DNA of 64,000 nt from Nitrospirota bacterium (GTDB lineage Bacteria; Nitrospirota; Nitrospiria; Nitrospirales; NS-4), in assembly GCA_005877615.1 (NCBI GenBank), contig VBOD01000106.1, positions 2,398 to 66,397 on the forward strand. Reading direction: 5' to 3'. Every line of letters begins with the position of its first letter. Within the stretch, counting starts at the first letter, position 1. A program made the translations under genes and the position numbers. The notes under the pieces are model-generated. The model made no database searches. It was not told the DNA's origin and saw nothing but the letters and a program-made list of their open reading frames with translations. This document shows positions 4,003 to 20,546 of this stretch, piece by piece.

Positions 4003-4707
4003 ATGGACAGGAGCGCGGGCCTGGCTCTGATTGGGGTGTGTTGCCTCCTCGTGTCCGGGTGCGCGTCCTCTAGGCAAAATACCTTCCCGCTCGAATACCA
4101 GCTTCCGCCCGACTTGCAACGCCAGGTCGAGCAGCGGGTGTCTTTTGCCAATGTCAAAGCCGATCCGGCGGCCTATAAGGGTCGGATCATCTTACTGGGC
4201 GGTGAGGTGCTAAAGGCAAAACGGTTGGTAGACCGTACCAGACTCGAGATCCTTCACCTTCCACTCAACGAGTTTAATGAACCCGTCATGAACCGGACCG
4301 CCTCTCAAGGACGCTACCTAGCTTTCCAGAAGGAGTTTTTGGACCCTGCGACGGTGCCCCCTGGGACGCGCATCACGCTGGTAGGTGAAGTCATCGGCAC
4401 AACCGAGGGCGACCTCGATGACATGAAATACTCCTACGTGACCCTGGAGATCCGCCATCTTCAGATCTGGCCGCAGACGCCCATGCCTTACGCGAGAGAC
4501 TCGCCCTACACTCCCTTCTACTCCTATGCTTACACGTATCGTTACTGGGACCCCTACTGGGGCTTCTACTGGGAGCCGTATTGGCCCTATCCATATGGAT
4601 TCGGCGGTTCCTTCCTGCGACCCAGACTGCGGGGAAGTCACCCGCTATCAGCGAAGGGCCACTCGCATGCCCATGCCTCCGGATCTAAAGGGGGCAGGGG
4701 AAAGTAG
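4003..4707 (+). CDS. Slp-family outer-membrane lipoprotein with an aromatic-rich C-terminal tail
   Basis: 234 aa. Lipobox LLVSGC. The core (YKGRIILLGGEVLKAK...TRLEILHLPL...GRYLA...TLVGEV) matches the Slp/YeaY pattern. The tail from about residue 160 is a Y/W/P-rich low-complexity region. Confidence 0.7.
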   Translation: MDRSAGLALIGVCCLLVSGCASSRQNTFPLEYQLPPDLQRQVEQRVSFANVKADPAAYKGRIILLGGEVLKAKRLVDRTRLEILHLPLNEFNEPVMNRTASQGRYLAFQKEFLDPATVPPGTRITLVGEVIGTTEGDLDDMKYSYVTLEIRHLQIWPQTPMPYARDSPYTPFYSYAYTYRYWDPYWGFYWEPYWPYPYGFGGSFLRPRLRGSHPLSAKGHSHAHASGSKGGRGK

Positions 4708-4716
4708 CGGGGTCGT

Positions 4717-5805
4717 CTAAGCGGTCATCGGCGGCGGCGCCGACTCAGTCAGATATTCTTCGTGGTAGATCTGAAACGCAGTGAGCAGGATGGCGAGAAG
4801 GATTGGCCCGAGGAAGAGCCCGATCAGCCCATAGGCCGCTAAGCCGCCAAGGATACTGAAGAAGAGGAGGAGCACCGGCAGCTTGGCCCCTTTCCCGATG
4901 AGTATCGGCCTCAGCACGTTGTCCACCATCATCACCACGCCCACTCCCCAGGCAAGCATCGCGATCGCCTTCCACATGGGGCCGGTCCAGAACAGGTACA
5001 GCGCCACCGGCCCCCACACCAGCGCCGTGCCGCCGAAAGGCAGCGGGGCCAGGACGATCGTGAGCGCTGTCAAGAAAGCCGGGAAGGGCACGTCGAGGAC
5101 CGCATAGGCGAGGCCCGCGACCACTCCCTGTACAATTGCCGTGATCACGATTCCCTTGACCACCGCCGTGATGGTTTGATCCAGGCGTGAAAACATCCTG
5201 TCCTTGTGCGCCTTGTCGAGCGGAATCCCTCGGTAGACACTCAGGAACAGTCGTTTGCCGTCTTTGAAGAAAAAGAACAGCGCAATGACGATCACCAGAA
5301 AGTTGACGGCCAGCAGGAAGGCGTTTTTGACCAGGCCGGTCACCTGCTCGACGATGAACCCGCTCATAGCCTTCGCGCTTTGCAACAGGAAGGCTTCGAC
5401 GTGCGCCTTCGACCCGACGAGCTTATGGAGCATGTGCTGCATGCGACGCCCGCCCAGCAAGGGGAGCTTGGCCAGCTCGTCCGGCAAGCGCGTCACGCCG
5501 CCCGACTGCACCCAGGTATTGACAGCGTCGTAGCCGTTGCCAGCCTCCTGGACAAGCAGGAAGGTGAAAAAAACCACCGGCGCCACGATCAACGCAACGA
5601 TTCCCACTGTCAACAGCGCGGCCGACGCGACCTCGCGCCCTCGGAGCAGACTTGTCAGACGAGTGTGCAGGGGGAAGGTGACGTGGGCTAGGATCACCGC
5701 CCATAGCAGCGGGCGAAGAAACGGGCTGAAAACCTCGGCCAGCTGGTAGAGCAGAACAAGCAGCACCCCGAGGAAACCGAAGGCGAACAACCGCTGGCGC
5801 GTCAT
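4717..5805 (-). CDS. AI-2E family (PerM/YhhT-like) membrane transporter
   Basis: The internal ATG at 5805 (MTRQRLFAFGFLG...) gives 362 aa with multiple TM helices and the FFFFKDGKRL, VDNVLRPILIGKG and GLIGLFLGP signatures. The ATG overlaps the upstream gene's TGA (ATGA). The 73-codon N-terminal extension in the ORF track is rejected. Confidence 0.85.
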   Translation of the reverse strand: MTRQRLFAFGFLGVLLVLLYQLAEVFSPFLRPLLWAVILAHVTFPLHTRLTSLLRGREVASAALLTVGIVALIVAPVVFFTFLLVQEAGNGYDAVNTWVQSGGVTRLPDELAKLPLLGGRRMQHMLHKLVGSKAHVEAFLLQSAKAMSGFIVEQVTGLVKNAFLLAVNFLVIVIALFFFFKDGKRLFLSVYRGIPLDKAHKDRMFSRLDQTITAVVKGIVITAIVQGVVAGLAYAVLDVPFPAFLTALTIVLAPLPFGGTALVWGPVALYLFWTGPMWKAIAMLAWGVGVVMMVDNVLRPILIGKGAKLPVLLLFFSILGGLAAYGLIGLFLGPILLAILLTAFQIYHEEYLTESAPPPMTA

Positions 5806-6821
5806 CCGGAGCGCCTGGTGTACAAGGTGTCCTCTTCGAACATCGTGAAGAGCCGCTTGGCCTCTGGGTGCAGAACGGCTTGCGAGGGCGACGGCGGCAT
5901 GGTGACCGTCCGGAACAACGGCGTGAGCTTGCCGTTGGGATGGAGGTAGCCGGCCCGCAACGGGACCGATCGGTGCTGGTGGCGGACAAGGTGGCACGGC
6001 GTCGGGCGAATACTGGTCAGCCATGCGGCAAGCTCGTGCGGATTGCCTATCGAGGCCGAAAGCAGGAGCAGTCTGGCCTGGGAGGGGCAGAAGATGATCG
6101 TTTCTTCCCAGACGACCCCGCGCTCCGAGTCGCCCAGGAACTGGCTCTCATCGATGATGACGAGCCCAAGGGTATCCAGCCGGACATCGATCTCGCCCCC
6201 CGCCGCGTCATAGAGGAGGTTACGAAGTATTTCCGTCGTCATGATCAGGATCGGCGCGGTGGGGTTGTCGCGCCGGTCGCCGGTGATGATGCCGACGAAC
6301 TCCGGCCCGAAGATCTTGCAGAACTCGGTGTATTTCGTGTTCGACAGGGCCTTGAGCGGCGAAGTATAGACGACAGTCCGGTCCTCGTGCATGGCGCGGC
6401 GGGTCGCCTCCACGGCGACGTAGGTCTTGCCGCTGCCCGTGGGGACGCTTACGATCACGTCACCCCGTTCCAGTGCCTCTACCGCCTCCATCTGCCAATC
6501 ATCCGGCACGAAGGGGCGCGGCTCCGGCACCCCAATACCTTCCAGAAGCGCGCGCAGGTCAGCCGGCTTTCCCGGTTTGTGTTCGGAGGATGCCCCACCC
6601 CCCGACGCCGGGACTGCGGCCAACGCCTGCTGCTCGGCCTGATGGGTACGAATCGTCGCCTCGACGCGCGCGATGTTGGCTTCGGCACCCGCCATGATCG
6701 TGTGCATGAGCCGTCGCTTCCCCATCCGTAGCGCCGGGGGACCAGCGATGGAGCGCCCCAGCCGGCGCAGTAGCCGGAAGGGGAGATTGGCGAGCGCCCG
6801 TTCCAATTCGTCACGTGTCAC
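5802..6821 (-). CDS. Ski2/HelY-like helicase, RecA1 (DEAD-like N-terminal) half only
   Basis: GTG at 6821 overlaps the upstream TGA (GTGA). Contains Walker A PTGSGKT, SPLKALSNTKY, MTTEILRN, motif II as IIDESQ, and motif III SAS. It ends shortly after RSVPL. The ORF-track extension to 7283 lies inside the upstream gene. Confidence 0.8.
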   Translation of the reverse strand: MTRDELERALANLPFRLLRRLGRSIAGPPALRMGKRRLMHTIMAGAEANIARVEATIRTHQAEQQALAAVPASGGGASSEHKPGKPADLRALLEGIGVPEPRPFVPDDWQMEAVEALERGDVIVSVPTGSGKTYVAVEATRRAMHEDRTVVYTSPLKALSNTKYTEFCKIFGPEFVGIITGDRRDNPTAPILIMTTEILRNLLYDAAGGEIDVRLDTLGLVIIDESQFLGDSERGVVWEETIIFCPSQARLLLLSASIGNPHELAAWLTSIRPTPCHLVRHQHRSVPLRAGYLHPNGKLTPLFRTVTMPPSPSQAVLHPEAKRLFTMFEEDTLYTRRSG

Positions 6822-8674
6822 GGCAGTTCCTCTAACACGCCGCGCCGGATGCGGCTCAGGGCTTCCGCCGCCACTGTGGCCAGGTCCGGATGCGTGGCCT
6901 GCAGGGAATGGACTTGGGAGAGGTATTCGAGCGTGCGGGACAAGAGCCGATAGATATCGCCTTCGGCCATCGACGTGGTGCGGCAGAGCTGCGCCCAGGT
7001 CACAGTGGTGTCGCCCACCCAGCGCTCCGCCAACCCGCCGACATCGGCGCGCAGCAGCGGGGGATCGTCGTACGGAGCCAGCGCTTCCGTCATCCGGCGA
7101 GCCGTGGCCACGAGGCTTGCCAGCGCCCCGGTGATGCGCGGGAAGGAGTCCGGCCGATCGTTCTCGTAGGCGATGCAGGCCATCAGGCCCGCCAGCGTCG
7201 CGGGCGTGACATCTTTGAACGCCTGCGCGCGGATCAACTCGGTGATCAACAGCGAGAAGTCGATCCGGATCAGTCGGGCCCATTCGCCGTCCGCGGTCAG
7301 CTTGAAGGCAGCGTCCAGGTACCCGAGGTCCTGGAGGATCTCCGCGCGCTCTTGGAACTTATGCCAGAGCCCGGTGCGCAGCGACTGCACGGTCCGCGTG
7401 TGGTGCAGCCACTCCTGCTTCACCGTGTTGCCGGCCTTGAACTCCTTGGCGCAGGTCGGCCGGCAGGGGCAGGTGGGGCAGGGGAAGAGGTCGCCGAGAC
7501 TCTTCACCAGTTCGCCTTCTCCTTCGTCCGGTGCCGGTGGAACCGTCAGGAAGGGTAGGTGCTTCGGCAAGTCCTCAAGCTGCTGAGTCAGCCAGGACAA
7601 GGCCTCTGGGGCCGCCCAGGGGAAGGCCGGGGCCGGGGCGAAGTCAAAGGTGCGGTCGATCACGCCCATGATGTCCGCTACCGGCGACTCCGCCACCACG
7701 CCGCCCGTCCGGAGGACGGTCACCATCTCGTGGCGCTGGCCCCGGCTCCGGTAGCGCCGGAGCACAATCCCGCGGAACCGTGGAAAGGCCACGACCCGCC
7801 CGGGCGTGAGGTAAGGGAGCCGCGCCCGGACCTCCGGCGGATGGTGGCGCCGCGCATGGAGTTTCATGGCCGTCTGCCGCGTGGCCTGGTCGTAGGCGCT
7901 CCACTGCGTCAGCCAGTCAGAACACTCGCGTGGCTTGTAGGACTCCAGCTTCGCGTGCAGCTTCTCGATGCGGTGCTCCAGGTGGGCGGCCTGGGCGTTC
8001 ATCTGGTACTGCGCGAAGCTCTTCGCGAGGATAGACTGGATGTGGTCCAGCGGATGCGCCTTGAGCAGATTGAGGATCATCGGGTAGGCGATGATGAACT
8101 GGCTGTCCACGGGTTCGGGGCGGCCGGTGAGTCCGCGAATCAGGACGCCGAGGTCCATATATGGAGAAGGAGTGACGATGGCGAACCCCACGCTGTCCTT
8201 GCCGCGACGGCCCGCCCGCCCGGAAATCTGAGCCACCTCCGCAATCGTCAGGTCGGTGAAGTCCTGGTCGCGCCGCACGCCTGACTGCGTGAGCACGACG
8301 GTGCGCGCGGGAAAGTCCACGCCAGCCGCCAGGGTCGTTGTCGCAAAGACGGCGTCGAGGCACCCGCGACGCATCAGTTCTTCGATGGCGATTTTCCAGG
8401 ATGGGAGGTGTCCCGCGTGGTGGGCGGCCACGCCGCAGGTGGTCACCGTCTTCCGCAGCGGATGATCTTGCAGGCTCGGGTAGCTGGCGGTCAGCTCGTC
8501 CAGAACCGCTGTGATGCTCTCCTGGCGAGCGGGCGGCAAGGAGTCGGGCGCGTGTTCGAACGCCTGCAGCGCCTCGTCGCAGGACCGGCGGGACGTCAGA
8601 AAGACTATCGCGGGTGTCAGCGACTTCTGGCGCAGGACCGTGACGAGGTGAACCGGATGGATTGAAGGAGGCAT
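6818..8674 (-). CDS. Ski2/HelY-like helicase, RecA2 plus C-terminal (DSHCT-like) half
   Basis: 618 aa beginning at the RecA2 domain (LTPAIVFLTSRRSCDEA). Motifs GVAAHHAGHLP, FATTTLAAGVDFPA and QISGRAGRRG are present. Also has the Cys-rich FPCPTCPCRPTC and a DSHCT-like end (MACIAYE...WAQLCRTTSMAEGDIYRLLSRTLEYLSQV). Confidence 0.8.
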   Translation of the reverse strand: MPPSIHPVHLVTVLRQKSLTPAIVFLTSRRSCDEALQAFEHAPDSLPPARQESITAVLDELTASYPSLQDHPLRKTVTTCGVAAHHAGHLPSWKIAIEELMRRGCLDAVFATTTLAAGVDFPARTVVLTQSGVRRDQDFTDLTIAEVAQISGRAGRRGKDSVGFAIVTPSPYMDLGVLIRGLTGRPEPVDSQFIIAYPMILNLLKAHPLDHIQSILAKSFAQYQMNAQAAHLEHRIEKLHAKLESYKPRECSDWLTQWSAYDQATRQTAMKLHARRHHPPEVRARLPYLTPGRVVAFPRFRGIVLRRYRSRGQRHEMVTVLRTGGVVAESPVADIMGVIDRTFDFAPAPAFPWAAPEALSWLTQQLEDLPKHLPFLTVPPAPDEGEGELVKSLGDLFPCPTCPCRPTCAKEFKAGNTVKQEWLHHTRTVQSLRTGLWHKFQERAEILQDLGYLDAAFKLTADGEWARLIRIDFSLLITELIRAQAFKDVTPATLAGLMACIAYENDRPDSFPRITGALASLVATARRMTEALAPYDDPPLLRADVGGLAERWVGDTTVTWAQLCRTTSMAEGDIYRLLSRTLEYLSQVHSLQATHPDLATVAAEALSRIRRGVLEELP

Positions 8675-8689
8675 ACGCTATCGGGTCGT

Positions 8690-8700
8690 ATTGTAACACA
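8690..8700 (-). promoter_or_regulatory. Candidate extended -10 promoter (TGTGTTACAAT) for the helicase genes
   Basis: The minus strand reads TGT-TACAAT, ending 15 nt upstream of ATG 8674. There is no SD before that ATG, so a very short leader is possible. No -35. Confidence 0.2.
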
Positions 8701-8764
8701 CAGGCCAGGAATGGCCGCGGCGGGAGCCGCTGGTCGGCGCAGGAGCGACTGCTACGGACGAGCG

Positions 8765-9355
8765 TTAGTCAGGCGCTCCGGACGATGGAGGCTTGACCGG
8801 GGCGGGGGTCTCCATGATTCCCGCCGCGATCGCCATGGCCGTCAGGCCAATGCCCAGCCACCACACGTACGGCTGGACGCCTCCGGCATCCGTAATAAGG
8901 CGGTCGCGCGTCGCTTCATCCAATCCGGTCCGCTGTTCAATCACGGCCAACGACAACTTGATGTGCATGTAATAAAGGTAGTTGGCGGCCACGGCGGCGA
9001 ACACGTTCCAGATCACCACACCGACCAGTCCGGCCCCCAAGACCATGGGCAAGAGCCCGCCGAAGAGAAACACGCCGGCATGCACGTACATCTTGCGATA
9101 GAGGTACCAGAGCCATCCGACGCCGAACGCCGGCCAGTGCCAGGTCGGCGCAAACCGCTCGCGCCCTTCCTCTCGAAACAGCCTGAAGCGTTCCAGGTAA
9201 TAGTCCGCGCGCGGGCCGATGAACTTCCGCCAGAACGCCATTTCGGTCAGGAGGGATGCGGCCGGCGCAGTGCCGCCGATGGAGAGCTGCTGCCCGCATC
9301 GGCTGCAATAGGCCGCGTCCGGCAGATTCTGATTGGCACAGCGGGGGCAGGTCAT
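8765..9355 (-). CDS. Zinc-ribbon plus DUF2628-like membrane protein
   Basis: Internal ATG at 9355 gives MTCPRCANQNLPDAAYCSRCGQQL (CxxC...CxxC ribbon). This is followed by YYLERF...WHWPAFGVGWLWYLYRKMY and TM helices typical of DUF2628-type proteins. Confidence 0.6.
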   Translation of the reverse strand: MTCPRCANQNLPDAAYCSRCGQQLSIGGTAPAASLLTEMAFWRKFIGPRADYYLERFRLFREEGRERFAPTWHWPAFGVGWLWYLYRKMYVHAGVFLFGGLLPMVLGAGLVGVVIWNVFAAVAANYLYYMHIKLSLAVIEQRTGLDEATRDRLITDAGGVQPYVWWLGIGLTAMAIAAGIMETPAPVKPPSSGAPD

Positions 9356-9368
9356 GCGCGAGAAGAGA

Positions 9369-9755
9369 TCAGGAAGATGCCGGAGTGGTTCCTTGAGGAG
9401 GGGGTGACGGCGTCCCAGTGGGTGCGGGAGGGGCGTCCGCGGGGCCCCCTCCCGCTTGAGGTGTCGCGCCCGCAGGCTTCGGCAACGCCGGCTTCTCAGC
9501 CTTGATGCCGCTGTTCCAGTAAGGGCCTTCGTAGGCGCCATCGGCCGGCGCCGCGGCCTTGAGGTTCAGTTCGTAATTGCCGGCCGCTTTGTTAACAGTC
9601 GCGCCCACTCCGACGATGTGGCACCATTCCGGCAGCCGCGCGCTGATCCGGCATTCCCCATTCTCCAGTTTCTCCATGTACAGGGCCACAGGATTACCCC
9701 GCGCGCCATTCGGCCAGAACTGGACGGTGCCGACGAACTCAACCTTTTGCGTCAT
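9369..9755 (-). CDS. Hypothetical protein with a Pro/Ala-rich C-terminal tail
   Basis: 128-aa ORF in the same-strand string, 13 nt from the next gene. The N-terminal roughly 80 aa look globular and the C-terminal roughly 45 aa are P/A/G/T-rich. No family recognised. Confidence 0.45.
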   Translation of the reverse strand: MTQKVEFVGTVQFWPNGARGNPVALYMEKLENGECRISARLPEWCHIVGVGATVNKAAGNYELNLKAAAPADGAYEGPYWNSGIKAEKPALPKPAGATPQAGGGPADAPPAPTGTPSPPPQGTTPASS

Positions 9756-9777
9756 CTAGAATCCTGCAGGGATTCTC

Positions 9778-10245
9778 TTACCACTGGCTCTGGGCGGCCG
9801 CGCGCTTCTTAGCGAGATCCTGCTGGTTGATTTCGTGACCCGGATTGATCATCTTGAACAGGGCGCTGCGGAACTGGCCCAGCTTGGCGGCCTGTTCCTC
9901 GGTGATCGTCACGATCGCCTCCTTGCCGGCTGCCTCGAACTGCTCGACCGCCTGCATGACGAACCGTCCCGCTTCCAGCACGCGCCCCGCCTCGAACGCG
10001 TCCAACGATTCGACCAACAGCGTGCTGACGCCCTTGACTTCACCAGGGAGGCGCTGGTCACGAAATCCATACACGGCGGTCTCATACTGACGGACCGAAA
10101 CCGGCTGGGGTTTGATGCTCTCGGAGCGGGCCTTGACCTGCTGGCGATACATGTCCGTGATAGGCCCCATCAACTGCTCCACCGCGGTGATGAGGGGACT
10201 GGCATCCATGCGGTCACTAAACACCATAACCTTCGAGGTTGTCAA
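9778..10245 (-). CDS. Hypothetical protein
   Basis: 155-aa ORF, first gene after the divergent AT-rich intergenic region. Composition looks coding. No family recognised. Confidence 0.45.
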   Translation of the reverse strand: MTTSKVMVFSDRMDASPLITAVEQLMGPITDMYRQQVKARSESIKPQPVSVRQYETAVYGFRDQRLPGEVKGVSTLLVESLDAFEAGRVLEAGRFVMQAVEQFEAAGKEAIVTITEEQAAKLGQFRSALFKMINPGHEINQQDLAKKRAAAQSQW

Positions 10246-20470: not shown

Positions 20471-20546
20471 TGGTGCCGAGGGACAGAATTGAACTGTCGA
20501 CACCAGCCTTTTCAGGGCTGTGCTCTGCCAACTGAGCTACCTCGGC
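20471..20546 (-). tRNA. tRNA-Phe (anticodon GAA), CCA encoded
   Basis: Folded by hand: acceptor GCCGAGG/CCTCGGC, D arm GCTC-AGTTGGCA-GAGC, anticodon arm CAGCC-CTGAAAA-GGCTG, variable GTGTC, T arm GACAG-TTCAATT-CTGTC, then discriminator A and CCA. Total 76 nt. Confidence 0.95.

Follow-up and report, generated by a model that had tools for sequence, protein, structure and literature searches.

The 64,000-nucleotide (nt) stretch of DNA analyzed here (the window; positions 2,398 to 66,397, forward strand, of contig VBOD01000106.1, assembly GCA_005877615.1) comes from a Nitrospirota bacterium of the order Nitrospirales. It carries two adjacent minus-strand genes, which raise the question whether one helicase can be encoded as two genes with the C-terminal half placed first. 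An earlier note on this DNA proposed that the upstream gene (gene A) and the downstream gene (gene B) are the halves of a Ski2/HelY-type helicase whose core is cut at the boundary of RecA1 and RecA2 and whose gene order is permuted. Domain analysis, comparison of related genomes and structure prediction make it quite probable that a single Ski2/Mtr4/HelY-type helicase is built from two subunits, A and B, and it would work as an obligate heterodimer and, like HelY and Mtr4, move 3'->5' on RNA.

The protein encoded by gene A starts with a methionine directly at the RecA2 sequence (first residues MPPSIHPVHLVTVLRQKSLTPAIVF). Pfam placed Helicase_C at amino acids (aa) 81-158 and DSHCT (PF08148) at aa 458-614 with E 4.2e-26, both above cutoff, and an MTR4-like stalk at aa 215-268, which remained below threshold (E 2.8e-4, 21.5 bits versus a cutoff of 24.2). 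Hel308-type models of NCBIfam are covered by A at positions ~246-439, i.e. from the start of RecA2. In alignments with solved Mtr4 structures, A begins at about residue 307 (307/322 onward) of the 973-residue chain, its residues 9-10 correspond to the RecA2 start and the first RecA2 helix, and a second stretch aligns to the C-terminal domain of Mtr4 (residues 773-965). A RecA1 domain of its own, which would make the pair two independent helicases, was not found in the 618-aa protein by Pfam, NCBIfam or the Mtr4 alignment. In the structure models, aa 220-342 form an arch-like insertion with a pair of long helices and a beta module of five strands; the Foldseek alignments, which compare the joined chain as a whole, span ~935 Mtr4 columns. 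A cysteine element, FPCPTCPCRPTC, with the pattern CxxCx5C, precedes the long helix leading into the DSHCT bundle and is a possible metal site. The description of A in the earlier note, starting at RecA2 and running through a Cys-rich element into DSHCT, is borne out. The length of A is steady at 618-623 aa in more than 100 protein clusters, with identities down to 61%.

Gene B provides the N-terminal part. The Pfam DEAD domain lies at aa 110-260, the Hel308-type NCBIfam models are covered at positions 28-210, and aa 101-295 align to RecA1 of Mtr4 (E 7e-42; chain residues 70-257). The two proteins thus match complementary parts of Mtr4. Among its homologues B is a stand-alone protein of 329-364 aa. 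It had been described as containing only RecA1 and ending just after the RSVPL element. The RecA1 domain with its motifs is present, but B also carries an N-terminal extension of ~90 aa and, after RSVPL, a tail of 54 more residues predicted to form two beta-strands and a helix. Four helices of the extension are predicted at a predicted local distance difference test score (pLDDT) of 82-92. The extension, with the consensus MTxxELExxLAxxP..L.RL...R.GKR.L, is present in every aligned Nitrospirales B, including that of a lineage only 54% identical (locus L088), and is absent from the B-type proteins of split families with canonical gene order and from an unsplit relative. A SAP/HeH-like domain was considered for this region and rejected, as three orthologous extensions gave no Pfam match even at E<=10.

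The residues between the two aligned stretches of Mtr4 (258-321) fall to the tail of B and the head of A. In the joined model described below this tail and junction segment has a pLDDT of 51-71. As modelled, the cut is not at the RecA1/RecA2 hinge itself, as had been assumed, but slightly beyond it, in a segment of low confidence. A trans-spliced split-intein protein was considered and rejected: Pfam detected no intein domains on A or B, the tail of B consists of 54 aa of helicase sequence, and A opens with RecA2.

AlphaFold2 (AF2) was used to assess whether both chains are compatible with a single fold. A alone was modelled with a pLDDT of 85.5 and a predicted template modelling score (pTM) of 0.51, parts of RecA2 being weak, and its best Foldseek matches were Mtr4, FRH and Ski2 (E~1e-29). 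For the joined model, B and A of the window were fused in the ancestral order, and the alignment contained this fusion together with unsplit, A-only and B-only database proteins. The joined chain reached a pLDDT of 90.2 and a pTM of 0.79, with higher RecA2 confidence in the presence of B. Poor confidence was confined to the B tail/junction and to the linker that follows the B extension. Foldseek matched this model to Mtr4 with E 2e-50 and a template modelling (TM) score of 0.63-0.67, to arch-less Mtr4 with a TM score of 0.82 and to Ski2 with a root mean square deviation of 5.0 over 891 columns. In this model B and A form a complete Mtr4-like helicase fold in which no part is missing and none is duplicated. 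The motif set of superfamily 2 (SF2) helicases is likewise complete and divided between the two proteins, motifs I, Ia, Ib, II and III being located in B and motifs IV, V and VI in A.

The arrangement was then followed in related genomes. A scan of one genome per GTDB species identified 192 genomes with a relative, and the best 80 loci were examined, nearly all of them carrying a Nitrospirales, Nitrospiraceae, Nitrospira or Nitrospirota label. In 75 of these 80 loci the gene immediately downstream of A, on the same strand, is B, and four contigs end at most 420 nt past A, which leaves 76 informative loci with A-then-B in 75. The sole informative exception is a 6-kilobase (kb) contig of a Nitrospirae metagenome-assembled genome (L082), where a gene for an NAD-dependent epimerase/dehydratase (4304-5281) follows A. 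On the complete chromosome of Ca. Nitrospira bockiana, A (618 aa) is followed by B (346 aa) with a spacing of 55 nt, and in the distant lineage L088 the same order occurs with 49 nt. Unlike in single-chain Ski2-like helicases, the core is thus carried on two polypeptides in 75 of 76 related genomes. The flanking genes differ between clades. In the clade of the window the order is Zn-ribbon protein, A, B and AI-2E transporter in 14/14 genomes, whereas in Nitrospiraceae a 412-aa sugar nucleotidyltransferase precedes A in 62 loci, its 3' end overlapping the start of A by 26 nt. Since A and B stay paired while their neighbours change, they constitute a conserved unit.

Sequence conservation is high in both genes. 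In 73-74 of 74 relatives, motifs I, Ia, Ib, II and III of B are unchanged or almost unchanged. Among 81 Nitrospirales A proteins, a regular-expression search recovered motif V and the CxxCx5C pattern in all 81 and motif VI in 75. Pairwise ratios of nonsynonymous to synonymous substitution rates (dN/dS) inside the window's clade are 0.085-0.157 for A and 0.071-0.116 for B, i.e. the two evolve at similar rates. Judged from these sequence comparisons, both A and B are functional and under purifying selection. This bears on the explanation that the odd order is an artefact, produced by mis-assembly or by the decay of a pseudogene that has broken apart into two. Apart from the oddity of the order itself, the only sign pointing that way is one relative with a frameshifted B (L024). 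The same arrangement recurs in 75 independent assemblies, complete chromosomes among them, the frames are intact with dN/dS of ~0.1, and a contiguous gene in N->C order, the finding that would have revealed a mis-assembly, was encountered at this locus in none of the 76 informative genomes. An artefact can be set aside as practically negligible.

The junction between the genes was examined for signs of coupled synthesis, which the earlier note had derived from the GTGA overlap of the A stop and the B start. An RTGA overlap of A and B is found in 14/14 genomes of the window's clade (79-95% identity) and in ~5 Nitrospira genomes, but most Nitrospira have a spacer of 18-160 nt, and there the ATG of B aligns with residue 1 of the window B. 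Translational coupling from A to B, by means of GTGA and the Shine-Dalgarno-like site before it, is accordingly plausible for the window's clade and a few Nitrospira, and not for the group as a whole. Co-transcription of A and B is indicated, because the genes overlap or are separated by short spacers. The frame of B is open for 462 nt upstream of the GTG inside A (6822-7283, minus strand), so that the listing of open reading frames (ORFs) gives a protein of 493 aa from an ATG at 7283. The start of B is nevertheless placed at GTG 6821, as in the earlier note, because homologues in 70+ genomes, including those starting with ATG in Nitrospira, align from residue 1 of the protein beginning there. 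The stretch 6822-7283 is, by the same alignments, a GC-rich open frame that is non-coding in the frame of B.

This open frame, together with the -1 position of the B frame relative to A at the overlap, could be taken to indicate a -1 ribosomal frameshift at GTGA in the window's clade, by which a single RecA2-DSHCT-RecA1 chain, a true circular permutant, would be produced. Most Nitrospira, however, have the spacer and a B with its own aligned ATG, no permuted protein of ~960 aa occurs among the matches listed, an SD-like site stands before the GTG, and no slippery heptamer is evident at the junction. Such frameshifting is highly improbable. A permutant encoded as a single chain was also considered and rejected: there are two ORFs, and a fused protein of ~960 aa is missing among the matches listed. 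Regarding expression signals, a sigma-70 promoter scan of positions 4500-10000 returned nothing, and terminator-like matches occurred only at chance level. An extended -10-like element (TGTTACAAT, 8690-8698, minus strand) precedes the ATG of A by 16 nt, and the interval contains no Shine-Dalgarno sequence. It was not called by the promoter scan, which required a -35 element, and gives a hint that the transcript may be leaderless or have a very short leader.

Compared with the eukaryotic helicases Mtr4, Ski2 and FRH, joined B and A share RecA1, RecA2, the winged helix, the helical bundle and all SF2 motifs, together with a predicted arch-like insertion. These helicases are, however, single chains of ~1000 aa with DEVH as motif II, whereas the pair in the window consists of two chains with the C-terminal half first, has DESQ, lacks the eukaryotic N-terminal region and exosome partners, and carries CxxCx5C. 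Bacterial HelY of the Mycobacterium type is likewise a DSHCT-bearing Ski2-like protein, and A-type proteins are labelled 'ATP-dependent RNA helicase HelY' or 'putative helicase HelY' in several sources. HelY is one polypeptide, though, and identity to unsplit relatives is only 27-40%. Other public annotations read 'helicase-related protein' or 'hypothetical protein' for A and 'DEAD/DEAH box helicase' for B. A Hel308/Hjm-type identity was rejected: the NCBIfam matches reach 56-76 bits against cutoffs of 887-1216 and concern the RecA lobes only, and both PDB and Foldseek rank Hel308 far below Mtr4 and Ski2. The locus resembles circular permutation by duplication, and the shuffling of gene order in operons that encode split enzymes, in that the encoded domain order is rotated with respect to the ancestor; here, in contrast, the gene order of two subunits is rotated and no single permuted chain exists. 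The arrangement had been thought to be undescribed, and no account of split or order-swapped HelY/Ski2-like helicases was found in the full-text literature, within a search of incomplete coverage.

Ski2-like helicases also occur in anti-phage defence, and a system of the Hachiman HamB type or similar was therefore weighed. PADLOC reported partial matches of both proteins to the models HamB, PDC-M23B and SngC. At E 1e-9 to 1e-15 these matches, which comprise generic segments of the helicase core, are far below those to Mtr4 and Ski2. Furthermore, no HamA-like or nuclease partner is adjacent, the neighbours being either the Zn-ribbon protein and the AI-2E transporter or the sugar nucleotidyltransferase, and the locus, inherited vertically and kept throughout an order, is part of the core and does not behave as a variable island. 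A defence function has very little probability.

The fission itself is not restricted to Nitrospirales, a point on which the earlier view has to be amended: it was found in at least three other bacterial lineages. In Blastocatellia (Acidobacteriota; family P0245/P0405) a DEAD gene of 286-287 aa is followed after 25 nt by a RecA2-DSHCT gene of 547-554 aa. The uncultured lineage P0285 has a 256-aa gene and then a 485-aa gene, also in the order N->C. In the P0260 family from soil metagenomes, RecA1 lies upstream on the same strand in 57 of 80 loci and downstream in none; it is on neither side within 3 kb in at least three loci, and in those cut upstream with downstream room it was found downstream in 0/13. 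In Chloracidobacterium (L084/L085) no RecA1 gene was detected within 4 kb on either side of the RecA2-DSHCT half. This half has 542 aa, and ~30 nt of its stop region are shared with a methyltransferase gene downstream. All split families share the cut point: the B-type protein ends past the RxVPL hairpin and the A-type protein starts ~20 residues before LLPAIVF. In a search of cluster representatives, several such A-type proteins were recognized by a starting methionine at this distance from the strand, and the B tail is shared by Blastocatellia and P0260. The canonical-order pairs thus resemble the Nitrospirales genes in cut point and two-gene logic. They differ in being arranged N->C or unlinked, and their B-type proteins, at 256-300 aa, are shorter, retain DExH and have no helical extension. 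The closest full-length relatives of A outside Nitrospirales, among the matches listed, are the A-type proteins of Blastocatellia with 39% identity. They are without the arch beta module, and the tblastn alignment skips residues 268-382 of the window A.

In the lineages examined, gene comparison indicates that the fission is not peculiar to Nitrospirales and that only the swap of the order is. A two-chain version of this helicase is viable and recurrent, given the adjacent N->C pairs with this cut in other lineages. In a crude neighbour-joining tree split and unsplit forms are intermixed, with actinobacterial-type sequences in another branch; the tree is too crude to decide between one fission and several. 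The C-half-first order is a derived trait, fixed in Nitrospirales, that most likely arose from an already split N->C pair. Three routes can be envisaged. A tandem duplication of the N->C pair (B-A-B-A) may have been followed by loss of the outer copies, or an unlinked intermediate, as in Chloracidobacterium, may have been re-linked in the opposite order. Thirdly, a duplicated single gene could have been trimmed to a permuted fusion and then split. This last route is the least supported, because neither a fused permutant among the matches listed nor a duplication scar was found. A candidate scar was the resemblance in the window between the B tail 'TMPPSPSQAVLHP' and the A head 'MPPSIHPVHLV' ('MPPS'); other Nitrospira B proteins have GIPKG or GIPHG, and the likeness is attributed to chance.

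In the proposed mechanism, B would supply the ATP-binding lobe with motifs Q to III, and A would supply RecA2 (motifs IV-VI, the arginine-finger lobe), the winged helix, the arch and the RNA-binding ratchet/DSHCT ring. Because ATPase site and RNA channel would exist only on association of the two proteins, an obligate heterodimer is the most likely form, and both hydrolysis and 3'->5' translocation would need A as well as B. The C-terminal bundle of A, which touches both RecA lobes in this fold, probably holds the association. The tail of B, which appears to give the RecA2 region its first beta-strands and helix, probably contributes to the association as well. A and B would be co-transcribed and, in the window's clade, translationally coupled in addition.

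A further proposal is that the swap is functional and not neutral. The B extension would act as a docking arm that seizes the DSHCT bundle of A co-translationally, so that the pair would be a 'pseudo-circular-permutant' whose assembly is programmed by gene order. With the canonical order, the B tail and the A head, the chain ends that have to meet, are made consecutively. Nitrospirales would lose that advantage, and the B extension would have evolved in response: the coupled ribosome that has just finished the C-terminus of A would go straight on to make it. Extension, DESQ and swap co-occur in Nitrospirales and nowhere else examined. This idea is regarded as rather unlikely.

Several points weigh against the heterodimer. 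All 73 Nitrospirales B proteins have DESQ as motif II, as opposed to DEVH, DEIH or DEAH in other families, and this departure from DExH may count against an active enzyme; a DESQ motif II is known in Suv3, which is an active helicase. The joined model is an artificial fusion whose alignment contains single-chain relatives, so that it leans towards the family fold and speaks for compatibility, not for binding. Association of A and B is likewise a prediction, and the RNA substrate, together with a role in RNA processing or decay, is suggested by family resemblance only. In addition, the unlinked halves in Chloracidobacterium and part of the P0260 family indicate that linkage is not obligatory for such enzymes. 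L082 is an exception to linkage inside Nitrospira and may stem from a local rearrangement or a chimeric contig, or represent genuinely unlinked halves.

The last two observations would also fit A and B being independent or having other partners, with A a dead RNA-binding or scaffold protein, B a stand-alone ATPase and their adjacency a matter of operon history. On the other hand, strong purifying selection maintains every motif from IV to VI in A and from I to III in B, linkage persists in 75 of 76 loci across clades with differing neighbours, and both chains together give one complete, confidently modelled fold. It is established that ATP hydrolysis by SF2 enzymes requires more than one RecA lobe, which also counts against independence. 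Independent functions are improbable, and the two-subunit helicase is preferred.

The features of the locus are compiled in Table 1.

Table 1. Genes, domains and junction elements of the split helicase locus, in window coordinates
Feature	Position	Strand	Description and evidence
Gene A, 618 aa	6818..8674	-	RecA2, winged helix, arch and helical bundle/DSHCT, making up the C-terminal two thirds of a Ski2/Mtr4-like helicase; translation, Pfam, Mtr4 alignment, AF2 model
RecA2 lobe of A, aa 1-~195	8090..8674	-	Motifs IV (VFLTSRRSC), V (FATTTLAAGVD) and VI (QISGRAGRRG)
Arch-like insertion of A, aa ~220-393	7496..8017	-	Two long stalk helices and five-strand beta module (aa 293-342); weak Pfam stalk, secondary structure of the model
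Cys element of A, aa 397-408	7451..7486	-	C399, C402 and C408 invariant (CxxCx5C); alignment of 67 sequences including Blastocatellia
DSHCT/helical-bundle domain of A, aa 458-614	6833..7303	-	PF08148; alignment to Mtr4 773-965
Gene B, 339 aa	5802..6821	-	N-terminal third of the helicase; translation, Pfam DEAD, Mtr4 RecA1 alignment
N-terminal extension of B, aa 1-~90	6552..6821	-	Four predicted helices (aa 3-68), then a low-confidence linker; Nitrospirales-specific
RecA1 lobe of B, aa ~95-285	5967..6539	-	Motifs I PTGSGKT, Ia SPLKALSN, Ib TTEILRN, II DESQ, III SAS
Tail of B, aa 286-339	5805..5966	-	54 residues past RSVPL; predicted beta-strands 288-293 and 299-301, helix 319-337 (DSSP of the joined model)
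GTGA overlap	6818..6821	-	A stop TGA 6820-6818 overlaps B start GTG 6821-6819; reads ...CTG CCG TGA / GTG ACA...
GAGGAA, Shine-Dalgarno-like hexamer	6827..6832	-	Within the end of A, 5 nt upstream of the B GTG; read from the sequence, function inferred
AI-2E family transporter gene	4717..5805	-	ATG 5805-5803 overlaps B TGA 5804-5802 (ATGA); Pfam AI-2E_transport; neighbour, not part of the helicase

Two 4-nt overlaps chain A, B and the AI-2E transporter gene, which directly follows B in 14/14 genomes of the window's clade and not in Nitrospira. The ORF listing extends the transporter to an ATG at 6024; its Pfam match begins at residue 87 of that reading, so that the ATG at 5805 fits better. On the other side, 90 nt upstream of A, a 258-aa Zn-ribbon protein is encoded at 8765-9541 (minus strand) in 14/14 genomes of the clade, with Pfam matches to Zn_Ribbon_1/DZR at residues 65-87 near the cutoff. 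The 412-aa nucleotidyltransferase of Nitrospiraceae (e.g. L001 3788-5026; 62 of loci L018-L083) combines NTP_transferase with a GlmU-like hexapeptide domain, has 75-84% identity and shows no obvious link to helicases. A typical Nitrospira-type A-B pair with identities of 61% and 65% was also found on a 3.3-kb contig (L063) of a metagenome-assembled genome labelled Gammaproteobacteria bacterium, probably through mis-binning and not through horizontal transfer. Across the 64 kb of the window, tRNA-Phe (GAA) at 20471-20546 (minus strand) was the sole RNA gene detected.

The likely cellular role of the enzyme, RNA processing or decay, is ordinary; the finding opens no long-standing question and leaves the view of the family unchanged. 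SF2 helicases with motor lobes on separate polypeptides are rarely discussed, however, and here the same cut occurs in four bacterial lineages and in all three arrangements, N->C, unlinked and C->N. The split pairs offer enzymologists a ready-made system for studying communication between RecA lobes and the part that the accessory ring plays in keeping them together. For evolutionary studies they provide a clean example in which a gene was first split and the order of its halves then changed and became fixed. In annotation, A and B of Nitrospirales should be read as one enzyme.

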